Positions 24,455-40,397 of a stretch of DNA of 40,397 bases are shown here, piece after piece. Positions within the stretch are counted from its first letter, which is position 1. Each line of letters starts with the position of its first letter. Source of the DNA: a virus (Duplodnaviria; Heunggongvirae; Uroviricota; Caudoviricetes); IMG/VR virus record IMGVR_UViG_2541047757_000012. One strand, given 5' to 3'. Under the pieces are notes generated by a model. That model did no database searches, was not told where the DNA came from, and saw nothing but the letters and a program-made list of their open reading frames with translations. Both the position numbers and the translations under genes were made by a program.

Positions 24455-24610
24455 TTACTCCTCAGGTTCGTAAGCTGTGAAGACAGCGACCTCCGTCTGG
24501 CCGGTTCGGATTCGTACCTCGCAGAGGTCTTTCCTCGTTACCAGTGCCGTCACTATGACGGTTAAACAGATGACGATCAGGGCGACTAACATCGCCTTTT
24601 GCTGCTTCAT
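24455..24610 (-). CDS. hok: Hok/Gef-family type I toxin
   Basis: 51 aa MKQQKAMLVALIVICLTVIVTALVTRKDLCEVRIRTGQTEVAVFTAYEPEE, near-identical to HokD/RelF as I recall it; SD AAGGAGAAG before the ATG at 24610. Confidence 0.8.
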   Translation of the reverse strand: MKQQKAMLVALIVICLTVIVTALVTRKDLCEVRIRTGQTEVAVFTAYEPEE

Positions 24611-24760
24611 AGCCTGCTTCTCCTTGCCTTTCGGCACGTAAGAGGCTAACCTAGATTTGCCGTTCATAGATTGAGCCTCAGATTAATGTTAAGCGTCTTG
24701 CCGGACGCGTAATGTTAACTGGGGCTTTTCTCTGTCTGCCTTACAGTGGCATGCCTGAGG
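24611..24760. promoter_or_regulatory. hok leader region, expected site of Sok-like antisense RNA and mok overlap
   Basis: Inverted repeat TCTGTCTGCC...GGCAGACAG at 24730-24770; in hok/sok loci the antisense RNA is encoded opposite the leader. Exact boundaries not determinable by eye. Confidence 0.35.
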
Positions 24761-24948
24761 CAGACAGCCTCAAGCACCCGCAGCAATCTTACCGACACCG
24801 ATAAGAAAACGCTATTTTTTATTGCCAGCACCTTCTATCCAGGCTAATTTATCTGCGTCAGAACGGCGCAATGCGCTCGCCTGAGATACGTTTACTTGCC
24901 ATGGTAACAACAGGTAACGGCAATTGTTGTTTCTGTTTTGTTTCCTTC

Positions 24949-29607: not shown

Positions 29608-30396
29608 TTACCCCCTGAAGCCTGGCGGGATCGCACTATCCGGTAACGAAACGGTGTTAACCTGTCGGAGTAACGTCTCAGGTCGAACACCTTTCGGCGC
29701 GAACAAGCCCTGGTATTCATTGGCGATGCTGTGTCGAATCACCTGCTCAGGTGAAAAACCCTGCTGGCGGAATTTTTCCAGCTCCCGTATCGCCCCGTTA
29801 GCGCCCTGCTCCGTTCGAATCGGTTTTCGCAATGCCTGCCTGAACTGAACCCACTCATGCCAGAGTGTTTCCGGCAACCAGTCAGGCAGCTCGATAGCCT
29901 CCGGCTCGAATTTTTTAGACGCTCGTTTTTGGCGAGGGGGATTTAGGGGGAGATCAGTATTTATATCTTCCTCTTCCTCTTCCTCTGGTAACGCTTTTTG
30001 ATCCGTTTGTGTAACGCTGGCAGCGTTACCTTTTCGTTTCAGTTCGCGTATTTTTGTTACTCGCTCGTTTGTAACCGCCCGTTTTTTAGAGCTTTTCCCG
30101 TTATGACGTTCAAAGTTAGGTAGAGAAAGCCCACCGTCATTTTCGATCAGCCATCCAACCTGAATTAACGCATCAGCAAAACCAGCCATAAAAGTGATGC
30201 GATCTATTGCACTTTTTGTAACGCCGCGAGCGTTACAATCTGCATTACCGTCTATCATTTGTTGATCCGCCCATGCCCAGAAGCGAATAACCTTCCCTAA
30301 TGCGGCATCTGGATCAATATTCAGAATCTCAGCAAGCCTGAATATTTCCGGCTTATCCGGCGTAATAACCTCGAGCTTTATCCAGTTTGAAGCCAT
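29608..30396 (-). CDS. Replication initiation protein, YdaU-like
   Basis: 262-aa ORF upstream of the DnaC-like gene; acidic EEEEEED linker; position fits a Rac-type replication module. Confidence 0.55.
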   Translation of the reverse strand: MASNWIKLEVITPDKPEIFRLAEILNIDPDAALGKVIRFWAWADQQMIDGNADCNARGVTKSAIDRITFMAGFADALIQVGWLIENDGGLSLPNFERHNGKSSKKRAVTNERVTKIRELKRKGNAASVTQTDQKALPEEEEEEDINTDLPLNPPRQKRASKKFEPEAIELPDWLPETLWHEWVQFRQALRKPIRTEQGANGAIRELEKFRQQGFSPEQVIRHSIANEYQGLFAPKGVRPETLLRQVNTVSLPDSAIPPGFRG

Positions 30397-30473
30397 TTGT
30401 TTTCACCTTGTAACGCTCGCAGCGTTACATTTAACTGATACCGAACAAAACAATCCGGCACGATCAATTTCAA

Positions 30474-32329: not shown

Positions 32330-32724
32330 CTGAATACCTTATTACTGGTTGTGTGAGAACTCCAGTATACCACCGAGCCTGAAGTGGTAAAAAGACAGGC
32401 GCACAACACGAAGGCGCATTTCCGGTATTCATAAAGAGTCGGTCTTGTCTGTTAAATTTAAATGGTGGGAGTGCGCCTCCGGTTGTAAATAACGACATTG
32501 CTATGTGTAGTCTTTGGCGGCATCAGTTCTACTCCGTGGCTGCCCTGCCGCCCCTTTTTAAAGTGAATTTTGTGATGCGGTGAATGCGGCTAAGCGCACG
32601 CGGCACAGTTAAAAGCATCAGTGTTATGGGTGGATTATCCGGCGTTAATTGTTAACTGGTTAACGTCACCTGGAGGCACCAGGCACCGCATCGACAAAAT
32701 TCATTTGTAAAAATGGAGATAATT

Positions 32725-33565: not shown

Positions 33566-36500
33566 ATGAGCACCGATAAACAAGTTTACCCACTGTATTA
33601 CGAAGCAAAAAATGACAAAGTAAGAAAACGTCTCGGTATTAAAGGCGGTTTCTACTGGGCTGAAGCGAAAAAATTATCCATTGCCATCTCCCGTGGTGCT
33701 GTTGCGATTGACGATGCTGGCTACGATGAAGATGACTTTAAAAAACCTGTTCGCGTCAATTTGCCCGTTGTTGATGACCTTCCACCAGAAGGCGTATTTG
33801 ATACGGAATTCTGCAACCGTTACGAAAAAGGCGGGGAAGATGGCATCACAATGGTATTTATCGCGCCCTCATCCTCTGCGCAGGACAAACCAGCCAGCAC
33901 TGACAATACCAATGTTAATGGCGAAGACATGACGGAGATTGAGGAGAATATGCTACTCCCGATTTCCGGTCAGGAGCTGCCCATTCGCTGGCTTGCTCAA
34001 CACGGCAGCGAAAAACCGGTAACGCACGTTTCACGCGACGAACTACAGGCATTACACATTGCACGAGCTGAAGAACTACCAGCAGTTACTGCCCTGGCTA
34101 TTTCGCACAAAACCAGCCTGCTCGACCCACTGGAACTTCGCGACCTCCACAAACTGGTTCGCGACACTGACAAAGTTTTCCCTAATCCCGTTAATTCCAG
34201 TCTGGGATTAATGACTGCTTTTTTCGAAGCATACCTGGACGCTGACTACACCGATCGCGGCCTGCTGACAAAAGAGTGGATGAAAGGAAATCGTGTTTCA
34301 CGCATCACCCGCACGGCTTCCGGTGCTAATGCTGGCGGTGGGAACAAAACCGATCGCAATCCGAATTTAGTACACACCCTCGACACACTGGATGTGGAGA
34401 TTGCAGCAGCCACACTTCCGATGGATTTTAATATTTATGAAATTCCGGGCAGCGTTTATCGTCGCGCAAAAGAAGTAGTCCTGAACAAAGAAAGTCCGTT
34501 CAAAGAATGGTCCGCAGCACTTCGTGCAACCCCGGGTATTCTGGACTATTCCCGCGCCGCTATTTTTGCACTTATCCGAAGCGCACACCCTGAATTTTAT
34601 CACTACCCGGGACGCCTTCAGGGGTATATCAACGCCTATTTGACGGAAACTGATCACGAGAACCCCAGCAAGGAAACTCTCACAGCTGCCCGGCATACGC
34701 CGGAAAAAGATATCCTGGAAGAAATTAACCGCGAGGTGGTTACTGAGCGTGAAACAGAAGAAGAAAAACCACAACCATCTGACGCAATGGCAGGTGAACA
34801 GGCAACAACTGAAACAATGGAACCGGATACAACTGAACATGGCCAGAACGCGCAGTCGCTGGATGCTCAGTCGCAGGTGAGTTCCGCTAACCAAGTAAAA
34901 GTCACCGCTGACGAAGTAAACAAAATTATGCAGGCAGCCAATATCAGCCAGCCTGACGCCGATAAGTTACTTGCTGTATCGCGTGGTGAATTTGTTGAGG
35001 GGATTAGCGACCCTAATGATCCGAAATGGGTCAAGGGGATCCAGACTCGCGATTCTGTGAACCAGAACCAGCATGAATCGGAACGGAACGACCAAAAAGC
35101 GGAACAAAACAGCCCAAATGCGCGACAAAATGAACCAGAAGCGCAACAGGAACCGGAAAAAGTCTGCGCCGCCTGCGGTCAGACTGACGGGGATAACTGC
35201 CCTGACTGTGGTGCGGTAATGGGCGACGCAACATACCAGGAAACATTCGATGAAGAGAATCAGGTTGAAGCTAAGGAAAATGATCCGGAGGAAATGGAAG
35301 GCGCTGAACATCCGCACAAGGAGAACGCTGGCAACCATCCGCATCACGATTACAGTGATGAAACTGGTGAAGCGTCAGCTCCTGTAGCAACTGAAATCAT
35401 GTGGCCGTCATATTTCGAGCCAGGCCGCTATGAAAACCTCCCGAACGAGGTTTATCACTCCGCCAACGGAATAAGCAGCACGATGCTGAAGGATGCCCGT
35501 ATCAGCCTGATGTATTACCACGGGCGGCACATTGCCGGAACTATTCCGAACGAGGAAAGTGATGCACTGCTGCGTGGGCGGATCATTCACAGTTATGTTC
35601 TGGAAACGGATAAATTCGCTGATGAATATGTCATTCCGGTACCGGTTCCTGAATATGTGGTTACTACTTCTAACGAACTGATCGCCATCATTAAAAAACA
35701 CAATGCCAGTCTGCCAGCACTGATGACACCAGAGCAGATGAAAGAGTGGATCGAAAGCTACAACAGCACTCTTATACAGCCACTGTCTGTAAGTGCTGGG
35801 GGCGAAGAAACAGGCATCCTTTACGGTTCGCTTCCGGTGGAATTTCGGCGTATTCCTGAGGGGGAAAAACATACAGCATCAGCAATGAAAGCCTGTATTA
35901 AAGAATACAACGCAAGCCTCCCTCCTCTGTTGAAAACCAGTGGAGCACGGGAGCAGCTTCTGGATCAAATTGAAACTGTAGACCCAGAACTGGCAAAAAA
36001 AGAACGTGCTAAATCTTTGCCTTACAACATCAGTGGCACAAAAGAGCAATTAACCGAAATCGCACGGAAAATTCGCCCGGAACTGGTGACACTGGAGGAC
36101 TGGCAAAAACGCCAGCAAGAAGAAAACGCCGGGAAAACGTTTATCAGTCTGGATATGTATGAACAGGCAAAAAATATTCACGCGGCACTGCAAAACAATA
36201 CCGATGCAGCAAGGCTACTCAACCACCCGGATCGCAAATCTGAAATCAGCTATTTCGGGTTTGATGAAGAAACCGGGCTGGAAATCAGGGTCCGTCCTGA
36301 TATCGAAATCCGGCTGCCATACGAAAGCATTTGCGCTGACGTGAAGTCAGTCAGCCTCGGTTATGTGCGGCAGGAACGACTTAAAGATCGCCTGCACCGT
36401 GAAATTATTGAGCGTGATTATCACCTCAGCGCCGCAATGTATTGCGATGTGGCAAACCTGGACAAATTTTTCTGGATCTTCGTCAACAAAGATGCTGGCT

Positions 36501-36691
36501 ATCACTGGGTGGCTGTCGTGGAAGCCTCGCAGGAACTCCTGGAACTTGGTCGACAGGAGTATCGCCGGACGCTACGCCAGATAAACGAAGCCCTAGAGAC
36601 AAACAACTGGCCAGCACCGATTACCGAAAGTTATACCGACGAATTAAACGACTTTGATCTTCGTCGTCTTGAAGCACTGCATCTGGCTTAA
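33566..36691 (+). CDS. RecE-like exonuclease with long N-terminal extension
   Basis: 1041 aa; C-terminal third has PD-(D/E)xK-like features (...RVRPDIEIRLPYESICADVKSV...); followed by a coupled annealing-protein gene; internal Cys4 cluster CAACGQTDGDNCPDCG and acidic low-complexity region. Confidence 0.55.
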   Translation: MSTDKQVYPLYYEAKNDKVRKRLGIKGGFYWAEAKKLSIAISRGAVAIDDAGYDEDDFKKPVRVNLPVVDDLPPEGVFDTEFCNRYEKGGEDGITMVFIAPSSSAQDKPASTDNTNVNGEDMTEIEENMLLPISGQELPIRWLAQHGSEKPVTHVSRDELQALHIARAEELPAVTALAISHKTSLLDPLELRDLHKLVRDTDKVFPNPVNSSLGLMTAFFEAYLDADYTDRGLLTKEWMKGNRVSRITRTASGANAGGGNKTDRNPNLVHTLDTLDVEIAAATLPMDFNIYEIPGSVYRRAKEVVLNKESPFKEWSAALRATPGILDYSRAAIFALIRSAHPEFYHYPGRLQGYINAYLTETDHENPSKETLTAARHTPEKDILEEINREVVTERETEEEKPQPSDAMAGEQATTETMEPDTTEHGQNAQSLDAQSQVSSANQVKVTADEVNKIMQAANISQPDADKLLAVSRGEFVEGISDPNDPKWVKGIQTRDSVNQNQHESERNDQKAEQNSPNARQNEPEAQQEPEKVCAACGQTDGDNCPDCGAVMGDATYQETFDEENQVEAKENDPEEMEGAEHPHKENAGNHPHHDYSDETGEASAPVATEIMWPSYFEPGRYENLPNEVYHSANGISSTMLKDARISLMYYHGRHIAGTIPNEESDALLRGRIIHSYVLETDKFADEYVIPVPVPEYVVTTSNELIAIIKKHNASLPALMTPEQMKEWIESYNSTLIQPLSVSAGGEETGILYGSLPVEFRRIPEGEKHTASAMKACIKEYNASLPPLLKTSGAREQLLDQIETVDPELAKKERAKSLPYNISGTKEQLTEIARKIRPELVTLEDWQKRQQEENAGKTFISLDMYEQAKNIHAALQNNTDAARLLNHPDRKSEISYFGFDEETGLEIRVRPDIEIRLPYESICADVKSVSLGYVRQERLKDRLHREIIERDYHLSAAMYCDVANLDKFFWIFVNKDAGYHWVAVVEASQELLELGRQEYRRTLRQINEALETNNWPAPITESYTDELNDFDLRRLEALHLA

Positions 36692-37794
36692 TGGAGAACC
36701 TGACCATGCAAAATACCAATATCATCACGACAGAGCAGACACCAAATACCATTTCTGCCAGTAACACTATTTTTAACGTTCAGGCGTTGACGCAACTTCA
36801 GGCAGTAGCCGGGTTGATGTCACAGGCCACCGTCACAGTTCCCGATCACCTTCGCGGAAATCCTGCCGATTGCATGGCAATCATCATGCAAGCCATGCAA
36901 TGGGGCATGAACCCCTACGCTGTGGCTCAGAAAACACACCTGGTAAACGGAGTTCTGGGTTATGAAGCACAACTGGTTAACGCTGTGATCTCTAGCTCAA
37001 GTGCAATTGTAGGCCGCTTCCATTACAAGTACGAGGGAGACTGGGAGAAATGCTCTCGCACCCGAGTGGAGACCGTTAAGAAAACGGCCAAAGGAGGCGG
37101 AATCTATGAGAAAAAAGAAACGATCCCATGTTGGACCAGTGAAGATGAGTATGGTCTCTCAGTTCGAGTTGGTGCAGTTCTTCGCGGTGAAAGTGAGATT
37201 ACCTGGGGAGAACCGGTGTTTCTTTCCAGCGTGATTACGCGTAATTCTCCTTTATGGACCTCAAACCCGAAACAACAGCTCGCCTATCTGGCGTTGAAAT
37301 ACTGGGCTCGCCTTTATTGTCCTGACGTCATCCTGGGCGTGTATACCCCGGACGAACTGGAAGAGCCACAGGAAAAAATCATCAATCCTGTGCCGGTACA
37401 GAATTATAGCGAGGTAAGCGAGCAGCGAACAGAAACCATCGAACAGCGTATTGACGAAGCGTGGATTGATGAATTCCGGCAGCGTGTCGAAAGCGCGGCC
37501 ACGACTGAGGAAACCACTGCATTACGCCAAGAGATAGAGGATCAGAAAAACCAGATCGGCGAATTCTTTGCCGAGCTTAAAGGAAAAGTGGTTCGGCGTC
37601 ATCACCGTCTCAATGCTATTGCCAGTATCGAGAAGATGATAAATGACCTTCCTTCATCAGGTGATCCAGAAGCAGAACAAAAATTTACTGCTCTGGAAAA
37701 TACGCTGAATGCTGCCCGGCCACATCTGGGTGAATTATATGAGGCGTATAAAACGACACTGACAGATATGAAACCAGAATATATCGGCTCCTGA
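36691..37794 (+). CDS. Putative single-strand annealing protein (RecT/Red-beta-like)
   Basis: 367-aa ORF coupled (TAATG overlap) to the exonuclease gene; assignment is mainly by position. Confidence 0.45.
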   Translation: MENLTMQNTNIITTEQTPNTISASNTIFNVQALTQLQAVAGLMSQATVTVPDHLRGNPADCMAIIMQAMQWGMNPYAVAQKTHLVNGVLGYEAQLVNAVISSSSAIVGRFHYKYEGDWEKCSRTRVETVKKTAKGGGIYEKKETIPCWTSEDEYGLSVRVGAVLRGESEITWGEPVFLSSVITRNSPLWTSNPKQQLAYLALKYWARLYCPDVILGVYTPDELEEPQEKIINPVPVQNYSEVSEQRTETIEQRIDEAWIDEFRQRVESAATTEETTALRQEIEDQKNQIGEFFAELKGKVVRRHHRLNAIASIEKMINDLPSSGDPEAEQKFTALENTLNAARPHLGELYEAYKTTLTDMKPEYIGS

Positions 37795-37857
37795 TATTGA
37801 CTTTGGCGGTGTAGCCTCACCGCCATCACAAAATTTTATTATATGAGAGAAAAGACA

Positions 37858-38052
37858 ATGCGGTATGAAAAAGTCAAACCATGCCCTTTTTGTGGTTGTC
37901 CATCAGTAACGGTGAAAGCCATTTCAGGATATTACCGCGCGAAGTGTAACGGATGCGAATCCCGAACCGGCTATGGTGGAAGTGAAAAAGAAGCACTCGA
38001 ACGATGGAATAAACGAACCACTGGAAATAATAATGGAGGTGTTCATGTATAA
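37858..38052 (+). CDS. ralR: Restriction alleviation protein Lar / RalR toxin
   Basis: 64 aa MRYEKVKPCPFCGCPSVTVKAISGYYRAKCNGCESRTGYGGSEKEALERWNKRTTGNNNGGVHV, closely matching Rac Lar/RalR as I recall it; SD GAGAG before the ATG at 37858. Confidence 0.8.
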   Translation: MRYEKVKPCPFCGCPSVTVKAISGYYRAKCNGCESRTGYGGSEKEALERWNKRTTGNNNGGVHV

Positions 38053-38233
38053 AATTACCGCCACTATTGAAAAGGAAGGTGGCACTCCTACTAACTGGAC
38101 AAGGTACTCAAAAACAAAGTTAACCAAATCGGAATGCGAAAAAATGCTCTCGGGGAAAAAAGAAGCAGGCGTTTCCAGAGAGCAGAAAGTAAAGCTGATA
38201 AATTTTAATTGCGAGAAACTTCTGCCCTCGTGA
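38045..38233 (+). CDS. Hypothetical small protein
   Basis: ATG at 38045 preceded by GGAGG; overlaps the lar stop by 8 nt; 62 aa. Confidence 0.4.
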   Translation: MYKITATIEKEGGTPTNWTRYSKTKLTKSECEKMLSGKKEAGVSREQKVKLINFNCEKLLPS

Positions 38234-38333
38234 GTTGCATTATATCCAAATTATAACTTCATAGCTGATTATTAAAAATCAATCACGTCCGCCAGTATTC
38301 TGTATATTTACTGGCGGTCATATCGTAAGAGGT

Positions 38334-38621
38334 ATGGCAATGAATCTTGTGACACTCAAAACGTGGGGAAAACTCAGATATCCGGATAACCCACCATCAA
38401 TATCAACGCTGAGACGATGGGCAAGGAATGGAAACATTTATCCTGCACCTGAACTACACGGGAGGAGTTACAGGGTGGTTCCGGAGGCTTTCTATATCAA
38501 CCCAAATAAGGTTGATACCGATATAACACACCATCAGCCTAATGGGCGACAAGGGAGAGACAGTCCGTTACTGGAGAAGTTAAAACATGCAGCGGAAAAA
38601 ATACGATCCCAATTTGCCTAG
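38334..38621 (+). CDS. xis: Excisionase, lambda Xis-like
   Basis: N-terminal ...VTLKTWGKLRYPDNPPSISTLRRWARNGNIYPAPELHGRSYRVV... parallels lambda Xis; 3' end overlaps int. Second ATG at 38340 has better SD spacing. Confidence 0.7.
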   Translation: MAMNLVTLKTWGKLRYPDNPPSISTLRRWARNGNIYPAPELHGRSYRVVPEAFYINPNKVDTDITHHQPNGRQGRDSPLLEKLKHAAEKIRSQFA

Positions 38622-39663
38622 GAACTTAACATATCGAAGGAGGGACAAAGCATATTACTGGCGCAACCCTCTGACGAAAGAAGAATTTACACTAGGTAAA
38701 ATTTCAAGAAGAGATGCAATCGCGCAGGCAATTGAAGCAAATCATTATATATACAAAAACTACTCTCCTGCTGCCTTAATTGAAAAACTTAAAGGGTTCG
38801 ACTCATTTACTATGGCAGACTGGATTGAACGTTACAAAACGATTCTTATAAGGAGAAAAGTGTCCAGAAATACTTATAAAATTCGGGTAAATCAACTGGA
38901 GACAATAAAAGAAAAATTGGGAGAGATTTTACTGACAGAAATAACCACTCGCCATATTGCCGAGTTTCTTGATTTGTGGATTGAAGGAGGGAAAAACACA
39001 ATGGCAGGATCAATGCGTTCTGTGTTGTCTGATATGTTTCGTGAGGCCATTGTTGAAGGACGTATATCTCAAAATCCAGTAACGCCAACAAGAGCACCGA
39101 AAATAGTAGTTACAAGAGAACGACTGAAACTAAAGACATACAACTGCATCAGGGAGGCAGCAGATCAACTTCCGGCATGGTTCCCATTAGCTATGGATTT
39201 AGCCCTTGTAACAGGACAACGTCGCGAAGACATAACGAATATGCGGTTTAGTGATATTTATGATGATCGTCTCCACATCAGGCAAATTAAGACAGGAATG
39301 ATGATTGCTATCCCCCTGTCACTCAGCCTTCCTGTCGCTGGTCTACGGCTTGGTACAGTAGTTGAACAGTGCCGCCTGGTAAGCCGGGGAGATTATCTAA
39401 TCAGTGCCGGGATTAGAAAAAACAGCCCTGACGGCAGCATTCACCCGGATGGCCTGACAAAAAAATTTGTCGCAGCCAGAAAATTAACAGGTATCCAGTT
39501 CAGTGAAAACCCACCAACTTTTCACGAGATCAGAAGCCTGGCTGGACGATTGTACAAAGAAACATGTGGAGAAGAATTTGCTCAGCGTCTACTTGGCCAC
39601 ACATCGGAGAAGACAACAAAAATGTATCTTGATGAGAGAGAAAAAACGTACTTACTGCTCTGA
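38587..39663 (+). CDS. int: Integrase, lambda-family tyrosine recombinase
   Basis: 358 aa; C-terminal catalytic region ...[11 protein letters not shown]...[18 protein letters not shown] with conserved Tyr; overlaps xis; adjacent to the att region. Confidence 0.9.
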
Positions 39664-39760: not shown

Positions 39761-39794
39761 AGACGCTTGCAACTGATTGATTTTAAATACAATT

Positions 39795-39897
39795 AAAAAA
39801 AGACCGAATACGATTCCTGTATTCGGTCCAGGGAAATGGCTCTTGGGAGAGAGCCGTGCGCTAAAAGTTGGCATTAATGCAGGCTTAGTTGCCTTGC
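39795..39897 (-). ncRNA. sdsR: sRNA SdsR (RyeB)-like host gene
   Basis: Minus-strand sequence GCAAGGCAACTAAGCCTGCATTAATGCC...GACCGAATACAGGAATCGTATTCGGTC + T7 matches my recollection of SdsR; sigma-S-like -10 CTATTCT upstream (about 39905-39911); terminal hairpin 39802-39828. Confidence 0.55.
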
Positions 39898-39984
39898 CCT
39901 TTAAGAATAGATGACGACGCCAGGTTTTCCAGTTTGCGTGCAAAATGGTCAATAAAAAGCGTGGTGGTCATCAGCTGAAATGTT

Positions 39985-40055: not shown

Positions 40056-40397
40056 TTAACAGAGTTTTTCAGCTCGTTCTATAAACGGTGCCAGACTCAT
40101 TTTTTCGCCGGGATTGTTAGGATCATCAATCTGAATCACCGAAATGGGTTGGGCTTTAGTCTTCCCACTGGCAACTTCCTTTTGTGCGATATCGTTTAAA
40201 GGATACTGCACGAGGGTACTTGGGTTGATGACATACAAAGCATTACCCGGTCGGCAAGTCAGCATCACCTCTTCGCGATTAAACGCCCATTTGTCTTTAC
40301 CCACTTCAAAACGGCTGACGGTAATCACCTGCGGTGCAGCCAGCGCCGCTGCAGAACTGGTGAGTAACAGAAACGCCAGAATACTTTTTTTCATCAT
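40056..40397 (-). CDS. yebY: Host periplasmic protein YebY-like (signal peptide)
   Basis: 113-aa ORF ending exactly at the window edge; [37 protein letters not shown]... matches my recollection of E. coli YebY; not phage-like. Confidence 0.55.

Follow-up and report, generated by a model that had tools for sequence, protein, structure and literature searches.

The ralR toxin gene

The DNA analysed here, the viral (Caudoviricetes) record IMGVR_UViG_2541047757_000012, is 40,397 nucleotides (nt) long and is referred to at its full length as the window. The interval 37795-38333, which belongs to a Rac-like lambdoid prophage and lies close to its right end, contains ralR, the toxin gene of a type I toxin-antitoxin pair whose antitoxin is the small RNA (sRNA) RalA. 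Along the plus strand the genes follow in the order recE, recT, ralR, ydaC (also rcbA), xis and int, after which comes yebY on the minus strand. An initial annotation, made by eye, had recognised the toxin reading frame and the two hairpins that flank it but had failed to find the antitoxin; as shown below, ralA lies inside the same interval, and the window very probably carries a complete allele of the RalR/RalA pair known from Rac-type lambdoid prophages.

The ralR gene (also lar; 37858-38052, plus strand) encodes a protein of 64 amino acids. A mechanical list of open reading frames (ORFs) gave the longer frame 37843-38052; the ATG at 37858 is the start used in Escherichia coli K-12 and by the Prokaryotic Genome Annotation Pipeline (PGAP) in ETEC4085 (NZ_CP122634.1, locus L091), a 99.5%-identical genome in which PGAP names ralR at the same coordinates. 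The protein scored 163 bits against the NCBIfam equivalog NF007260 ("type I TA endodeoxyribonuclease toxin RalR"; cut-off 113), and it also matched Pfam Lar_restr_allev (PF14354, E 3.5e-14) and TIGR03655 ("Lar family restriction alleviation protein"). It is identical to K-12 RalR at 62 of 64 residues, the sole differences falling at residues 4-5 (EK vs DN), so the earlier description of the ORF as well conserved was borne out. In K-12, over-produced RalR is toxic and has been reported to be a non-specific DNase (PMC4041452), and mutation of six residues (14, 37, 39, 49, 51 and 52) was reported to reduce toxicity; the corresponding C14, T37, Y39, R49, N51 and K52 are all present in the RalR of the window. 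By these matches, RalR is identified as a Lar-family zinc-ribbon protein and the orthologue of the K-12 toxin.

A consensus scan of 37600-38700 called no promoter between recT and ralR. The hexamer TTGACT at 37797-37802 was considered as a -35 box for ralR and rejected, as no -10 element lies at a workable distance and the hexamer is not conserved in K-12.

The antitoxin gene ralA

Scanning positions 36500-39000 against Rfam returned a full-length match to the RalA family (RF02694, model positions 1-179) at 216.7 bits, compared to a gathering score of 170 (E 6.6e-53). The match places ralA, a 179-nt antitoxin sRNA gene, on the minus strand at 38051-38229, with its predicted start at 38229 and its 3' end at 38051. 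It had been missed by eye as its sequence runs on the complementary strand of an ORF, ydaC; an sRNA antisense to an ORF is easily overlooked in this way. A scan of the whole window returned the same match at 38051-38229 and no second RalA copy. In K-12 MG1655, the annotated ralA (b4714) occupies the equivalent position, on the antisense strand inside rcbA/ydaC, and in the window as in K-12 the last 2 nt at the 3' end of RalA fall within the ralR stop codon. Alignment to the Rac ralR-ralA region, the check that had been proposed for this locus, showed that the window is collinear with K-12 over 37804-38282 at ~93-95% identity and that a ralA-like sequence is present; RalA itself differs from the annotated K-12 ralA at 13 of its 179 positions (166 identical). 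Together with the RalR equivalog match and the RF02694 match, this collinearity upholds the assignment of the system to the type I RalR/RalA pair of Rac with an sRNA antitoxin.

The ends of the predicted transcript are likewise recognisable. A Rho-independent terminator occupies 38051-38084 on the minus strand, with a stem GCCACC/GGUGGC (RalA nt 146-171) and the tail GGUAAUUUU; by the Rfam consensus structure and the alignment, both the hairpin and the U-tail are identical to those of K-12, for which the RalA terminator has been described (PMC4041452). Upstream of the gene, a candidate promoter region at 38239-38255 (minus strand) holds two TATAAT hexamers, at 38244-38239 and 38255-38250. The first of these lies at -15 to -10 relative to the deduced RalA start, and an A/T-rich stretch is found further upstream. 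K-12 has TACAAT and TTTAAT where the window has its two TATAAT boxes, so that the -10-like boxes of ralA are nearer consensus in the window than in K-12. We infer promoter function for this region from the start mapped by primer extension in K-12, which lies 62 nt upstream of a 16-nt repeat shared with ralR (Guo et al. 2014, PMC4041452), and from the comparison with K-12.

The feature table that PGAP produced for ETEC4085 contains no ralA non-coding RNA, and none occurs among the feature names of the other RefSeq matches listed. It therefore appears that ralA goes unannotated in RefSeq records, although in the window it exceeds the Rfam gathering score, and readers of these annotations could wrongly take the toxin as orphaned.

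Pairing between RalA and the ralR mRNA

The RalA target in the ralR mRNA is a 16-nt site, AAGTGAAAAAGAAGCA, at 37980-37995 on the plus strand, which spans codons Ser42-Ala46 and is identical in K-12. Its counterpart in RalA is the seed UGCUUCUUUUUUCCCC (RalA nt 63-78; 38152-38167, minus strand), which in K-12 reads ...UACCU at its end. Within these sites an 11-nt perfect core is kept, joining ralR 37985-37995 (codons 43-46) with RalA nt 63-73 (38157-38167). In the DNA the core shows up as an 11-nt direct repeat. Between RalA and the ralR mRNA no Watson-Crick run is longer, and its length was matched in 3 of 200 shuffles. The corresponding pairing in K-12 is well characterised: mutation and compensatory mutation of the 16-nt repeat showed that the repeat mediates protection, 11 contiguous perfect pairs were sufficient, and protection was Hfq-dependent, with the RalR protein dropping while the ralR mRNA did not (PMC4041452).

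Compared to K-12, RalA of the window is substituted at nt 75 and 78 (A/U to C), within the distal part of the seed. The predicted energy of the local duplex is nevertheless -19.3 kcal/mol in the window versus -19.2 kcal/mol in K-12, compared to -16.6 kcal/mol for the common CCCU variant and -9.7 kcal/mol for the inactive M1 mutant. The CCCC of the window's RalA is also able to pair with a GGUGG just upstream in ralR. These energies were calculated from short oligonucleotides, alongside the shuffle test on run length. A whole-length RNAduplex prediction between the ralR mRNA and RalA was discarded: the resulting multi-loop structure of -72 kcal/mol is meaningless, as it sets a purine-rich mRNA against a U-rich antisense RNA.

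Variation across related loci

We compared 88 sequences, comprising the window and 87 related loci; a scan of viral contigs had yielded 80 loci, all close relatives, and a scan of genome contigs 9. The RalR ORF is intact in all 88, and only one locus departs from an otherwise invariant ralR target. Variation in the RalA seed falls almost wholly at nt 75-78, which read ACCU in 51 sequences, CCCU in 23 and CCCC in 5, and it lies on third-codon positions of the Ser-Gly codons of ydaC. The single locus with an altered target, L016, carries a GCA-to-GCU change in ralR (site ~1623-1638) together with a U63-to-A change in RalA, so that the terminal pair of the seed is maintained; in L031, a close relative of L016, only RalA has changed (U63-to-A). 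We count L016 as one instance of compensation, which agrees with the pairing model.

The two Citrobacter-type loci L008 and L009 (3001-3398 in each) keep both ralR and ydaC, and their match to the Rfam RalA model reaches only 29-35 bits. In a shuffle test on the Citrobacter-type loci that hold both genes, complementarity between ralR and the antisense strand of ydaC was no better than chance. Given this chance-level complementarity and the weak RalA match, pairing between RalA and ralR seems to be restricted to the Escherichia/Shigella Rac lineage.

Several findings weigh against a fully functional antitoxin in the window. The consensus scan of 37600-38700 called no canonical sigma-70 promoter for ralA, and no good -35 element is evident. 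The 16-nt duplex is weaker in its distal 5 nt, with 12 Watson-Crick pairs and one G-U pair versus 14 and one in K-12. Helix 5 of the Rfam structure (nt 97-101 with 112-116) is broken in the window's RalA and in about half of its relatives, and covariation support for the RalA fold is weak and close to that of shuffle controls: among 31 distinct alleles there is one double-change pair, an A-U to G-C change in the 5' stem, of which the window carries the changed form. In addition, two loci, L072 and L089 (~1694-1860, minus strand), have a 12-nt in-frame deletion that removes RalA nt 59-70 and thereby most of the seed, together with part of the conserved KEAGV stretch of YdaC, and in both RalR is intact and identical to that of K-12. 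From these two loci, the antitoxin may be dispensable at native expression; evidently the toxin tolerates the loss of a functional seed, presumably as the early operon is repressed.

Read at their most severe, such findings would describe a decayed system, in which the toxin gene persists beside an antitoxin that no longer works. The substitutions at nt 75 and 78 in the distal duplex and the absence of a promoter call for ralA would fit decay, but the full-length Rfam match above the gathering score, the intact core seed, target and terminator, a duplex energy equal to that of K-12 and -10 boxes nearer consensus than those of K-12 all stand against it. Moreover, the CCCC variant is shared by 5 of the 88 sequences and its intermediate, CCCT, by 23. 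We consider decay highly improbable.

The deletion loci bear on a second reading, in which RalR acts mainly as Lar, an early protein that alleviates host type I restriction and is expressed on induction from an otherwise repressed recE-recT-ralR-ydaC-xis-int operon. RalA would then restrain leaky expression as an antisense RNA, and its description as part of a toxin-antitoxin pair would be a consequence of over-expression: the anatomy would be the same and the purpose different. This reading draws on the matches of RalR to both Lar_restr_allev and TIGR03655, on the position of ralR at the distal end of the recET operon, where no promoter was called in the recT-ralR spacer, on the intact RalR beside seed-deleted RalA in L072 and L089, and on the report that deletion of ralR or ralA had no effect on excision of Rac (PMC4632033). 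The compensatory mutations, however, show a specific RNA-RNA antidote relation (PMC4041452), and we find a predominantly Lar role possible but doubtful. Returning to RalR/RalA as a toxin-antitoxin pair, completeness in the window is argued for by the retention of RalA at full length with its seed, terminator and -10 boxes, and of the target in ralR; the A-U to G-C double change in the 5' stem of RalA also counts in its favour.

The reading frame opposite ralA

The ORF on the strand opposite ralA, ydaC/rcbA (38045-38233, plus strand), encodes a DUF1187 protein of 62 amino acids (Pfam PF06688, E 1.3e-37) and is called as a coding sequence by PGAP. Its ATG at 38045 overlaps the end of ralR, whose stop codon is at 38050-38052, and a GGAGG Shine-Dalgarno sequence is found 5 nt upstream. 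Across the related loci, polymorphisms in the ydaC-only segment are distributed 13/8/24 over codon positions 1/2/3 (chi-square ~8.9, p ~0.01), compared to 6/4/25 in ralR. Between the window and the Citrobacter braakii homologue in L008, the proportions of synonymous and nonsynonymous differences (pS and pN) are 0.79 and 0.23, and between the Citrobacter-type loci L008 and L009 nonsynonymous divergence (dN) is 0.038 and synonymous divergence (dS) 0.768 (dN/dS ~0.05). The DUF1187 protein alignment shows residues that are invariant across Escherichia, Citrobacter and Klebsiella, and DUF1187 genes occur with no upstream Lar gene in other enterobacterial prophages (L092, L095 and L096). An AlphaFold model of YdaC has a beta-beta-alpha-beta fold with a predicted local distance difference test (pLDDT) score of 80; searching this model against the Protein Data Bank (PDB) with Foldseek returned no significant match, the best being a phage p56 UDG inhibitor at E 0.9. 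The K-12 annotation of rcbA reads "double-strand break reduction protein", and in the literature on rcbA/ydaC/DUF1187 and Lar restriction alleviation we found nothing newer bearing on mechanism. The substitution pattern thus argues that ydaC evolves as a protein-coding gene under purifying selection, contrary to the original paper (PMC4041452), in which His-tagged YdaC protein was not detected.

If YdaC is a real protein, this suggests that RalA is also the cis-antisense RNA of a real gene. A reading that starts from ydaC goes further: RalA would be chiefly the cis-antisense RNA of ydaC, with 179 nt of perfect complementarity to the ralR-ydaC transcript, YdaC might counteract DNA damage, and trans pairing with ralR would be young, Escherichia-specific and derived from shared (E/K)-K-E-A codons. 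The codon-position bias and divergence ratios, the invariant residues in three genera, the DUF1187 genes that lack a Lar partner, the Shine-Dalgarno sequence, the structure model, the rcbA annotation in K-12 and the Citrobacter-type loci that keep both genes with no above-chance complementarity all favour it. On the other side, besides the failure to detect the tagged protein, protection persisted when the ydaC start codon was mutated or an early stop introduced, a plasmid carrying ralR alone was countered by RalA provided in trans, and protection depended on the 16-nt repeat (PMC4041452). RNA antitoxin activity is thus real, since neither the ydaC mutations nor supply in trans removed protection, and the published evidence for the RNA as the antidote stands whatever YdaC does. 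A primary role as the cis-antisense RNA of ydaC is, in our judgement, rather improbable.

How the trans pairing arose can nevertheless be approached from the codons involved. The RalA seed lies opposite the codons of ydaC for K-K-E-A, and the target in ralR specifies E-K-E-A; because of this resemblance between the two codon strings, the trans pairing looks like a by-product of it that is confined to one lineage. One possible, if speculative, synthesis is a three-part module, in which YdaC is translated, maintained by selection and translationally coupled to ralR, while RalA has two roles: over its full length as a cis-antisense RNA to ydaC and, by way of an 11-nt seed acquired recently in Escherichia/Shigella, as a trans repressor of ralR. 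Recent acquisition of the seed would follow from the Citrobacter- and Klebsiella-type relatives, which keep DUF1187, with or without Lar, in the absence of complementarity, and the K-E-A codon string shared by both ORFs would have made the trans pairing possible. If true, the module would illustrate how an antitoxin seed evolves while constrained by the codons of a gene that overlaps it.

The flanking hairpins

Hairpin 1 lies in the recT-ralR spacer at 37804-37825 (plus strand) and has an 8-bp stem, TGGCGGTG/CACCGCCA (37804-37811/37818-37825), with a 6-nt loop; the initial annotation had given it as a 7-bp hairpin at 37805-37824, one pair short of a hairpin that is real. The folding free energy of its RNA is -15.5 kcal/mol (z -4.2), and none of 200 shuffles folded as well. 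Hairpin 2, at 38289-38317 (plus strand), is exactly the 9-bp inverted repeat before xis that had been described, with a stem CCGCCAGTA/TACTGGCGG (38289-38297/38309-38317) and an 11-nt loop; its free energy is -18.8 kcal/mol (z -4.8), and it ends 8 nt before the xis Shine-Dalgarno sequence. Counting perfect inverted repeats with loops of 3-12 nt over the whole window gave 17 of at least 8 bp versus 4.9 in shuffles, and 9 of at least 9 bp versus 1.0. The two hairpins therefore exceed chance, yet hairpins like them are not unusual in the prophage.

The two hairpins belong to different modules. Homology to K-12 and to most Rac-type loci starts at hairpin 1 and stops at 38282, just before hairpin 2. 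The stem of hairpin 1 is kept in K-12 with a different loop, and the sequence to its left, the 3' ends of recT, is unrelated; because the stem is conserved beside unrelated recT ends, hairpin 1 marks the left edge of the conserved ralR-ralA module and travels with ralR. Hairpin 2 is invariant in loci with the same xis-int module, apart from a 4-nt insertion in L055 alone, and is absent from other loci, which identifies it as part of the exchangeable xis-int module rather than of ralR-ralA. The equivalent site in K-12 (L001:2445-2535, minus strand of the locus) holds a hairpin that differs in sequence; its stem has 10 bp, one of them G-U, and its loop 11 nt. The sense strand forms the stronger structure, as the wobble pair becomes an A-C mismatch on the antisense strand. 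Since this G-U pair works only on the sense strand, the K-12 analogue of hairpin 2 points to a role in the sense transcript. Each of two unrelated excisionase genes thus has, ~20 nt ahead of its start codon, a stem-loop with 9-10 bp and an 11-nt loop, alike in shape but different in sequence. The paper on Rac excision (PMC4632033) makes no mention of a palindrome upstream of xisR.

A link between the hairpins and the antitoxin, implied in the initial annotation, was not supported. As candidates for the antitoxin or its terminator both were rejected, since neither overlaps ralA or its promoter, and hairpin 2 lies beyond the right end of the module. The hairpins flank ralR-ydaC in the sense transcript (ralR-ydaC-xis), where they would most likely serve in partial termination or in the protection of ends; they might insulate or stabilise the ralR-ydaC message, whose half-life in K-12 exceeds 20 min (PMC4041452), and shield xis-int from read-through. 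Termination at these sites is disfavoured by the lack of a T-run within 0-2 nt of either hairpin on either strand and by a count of 0 terminator-like sites in 37600-38700: neither hairpin combines a G+C-rich stem-loop with an immediate U-tract, as an intrinsic terminator does.

The prophage and its surroundings

On the left, ralR is preceded on the plus strand by recE (33566-36691) and recT (36691-37794). The next gene downstream of ydaC is xis, encoding an excisionase (38340-38621, plus strand; Pfam Exc, and so annotated by PGAP in ETEC4085), followed by the tyrosine integrase gene (38587-39663, plus strand). BLASTP detected no similarity between the excisionase of the window and XisR of K-12. 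The host gene yebY lies 3' of the integrase gene, on the minus strand at 40056-40397. Directly after the integrase gene and before yebY sits the host sRNA pair SraC/RyeA (39791-39935, plus strand) and SdsR/RyeB (39795-39894, minus strand), and an inverted repeat at 39802-39828 falls within these sRNAs. Because this sRNA pair is found between the integrase gene and yebY, the prophage is placed by sequence at the ryeA/ryeB-yebY locus and not at ttcA, the insertion site of K-12 Rac.

Other features were seen elsewhere in the window. The sok antitoxin family (RF01794) matched at 24605-24779 on the minus strand with 112 bits against a gathering score of 59, which indicates that the window holds a second type I locus, a toxin-antitoxin system of the hok/sok type. 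Upstream of recE, a DicF-family sRNA (RF00039) matched at 32502-32553 on the plus strand (60.9 bits, gathering score 48), in a position comparable to the kilS/DicF-like region of K-12 Rac. Three related palindromes with arms TGTAACGC(T), at 30011-30029, 30216-30238 and 30409-30429, are spaced ~200 nt apart between divergent ORFs and look like the repressor operators of an immunity region.

The region is widespread, matching 1922 of 5426 complete E. coli genomes (more than one third). The ralR-ralA-xis region is also found at 98% identity over its full 539 nt in PP818812.1 (254-792), a record named "Actinobacillus phage vB_Apl-pPE4". This would be unexpected for a phage of Pasteurellaceae, and the record may represent an E. 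coli prophage or a mis-assigned host.

Model of RalR/RalA action and comparison with known systems

Taken together, the window very likely holds a complete RalR/RalA allele, from which the hairpins of the sense transcript are separate. In the model that we favour, ralA would be transcribed convergently to ralR from its own promoter, antisense to ydaC/rcbA, to give a 179-nt Hfq-dependent sRNA. Nucleotides 63-73 of RalA would then pair with ralR codons 43-46 (37985-37995), lowering RalR protein without degradation of the mRNA. By analogy, we infer that the allele behaves like that of K-12 in toxicity, rescue and Hfq dependence. The RalR/RalA pair itself is already known: it has been characterised since 2014, has its own Rfam family, and its toxin gene is named by PGAP. 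For specialists in type I systems the present findings would, if confirmed, be of modest interest, namely the selection on ydaC, the lineage-restricted pairing, the RalA alleles that have lost their seed and the shape-conserved hairpin before xis.

The closest known system is that of K-12 Rac itself (b1348, b4714; PMC4041452), with which the window shares the order recT, ralR, ydaC with ralA antisense, xis and int, the ralR target, the RalA terminator and the 2-nt overlap between RalA and the ralR stop codon. The window differs from it in RalA nt 75 and 78, in a helix 5 that is not formed, in -10 boxes nearer consensus, in longer flanking recE and recT genes, in an unrelated xis-int module and in the insertion locus. 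Among other type I systems, TisB/IstR-1, ShoB/OhsC and ZorO/OrzO likewise have an sRNA gene that adjoins the toxin gene rather than lying antisense to it, and a seed of 11-21 nt (PMC4041452). Their toxins, however, are small hydrophobic membrane peptides and their pairing involves the 5' untranslated region, whereas RalR, which is reported to act as a DNase, is soluble and of the zinc-ribbon type, and its mRNA is paired deep within the coding region; unlike the sRNAs of these systems, RalA also lies antisense, over its whole length, to a third gene, ydaC. The Lar/Ral proteins of lambdoid phages (PF14354, TIGR03655) belong to the same protein family and occupy a similar early-left position, but lambda Ral is only ~24% identical to RalR and no antisense sRNA partner is known for it (PMC4041452). 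Finally, hok/sok resembles RalR/RalA in that a stable toxin mRNA is under the control of an antisense RNA. Sok, however, is cis-encoded over the mok/hok leader and triggers decay by RNase III, whereas RalA pairs in trans and is reported not to lower the level of the ralR mRNA.

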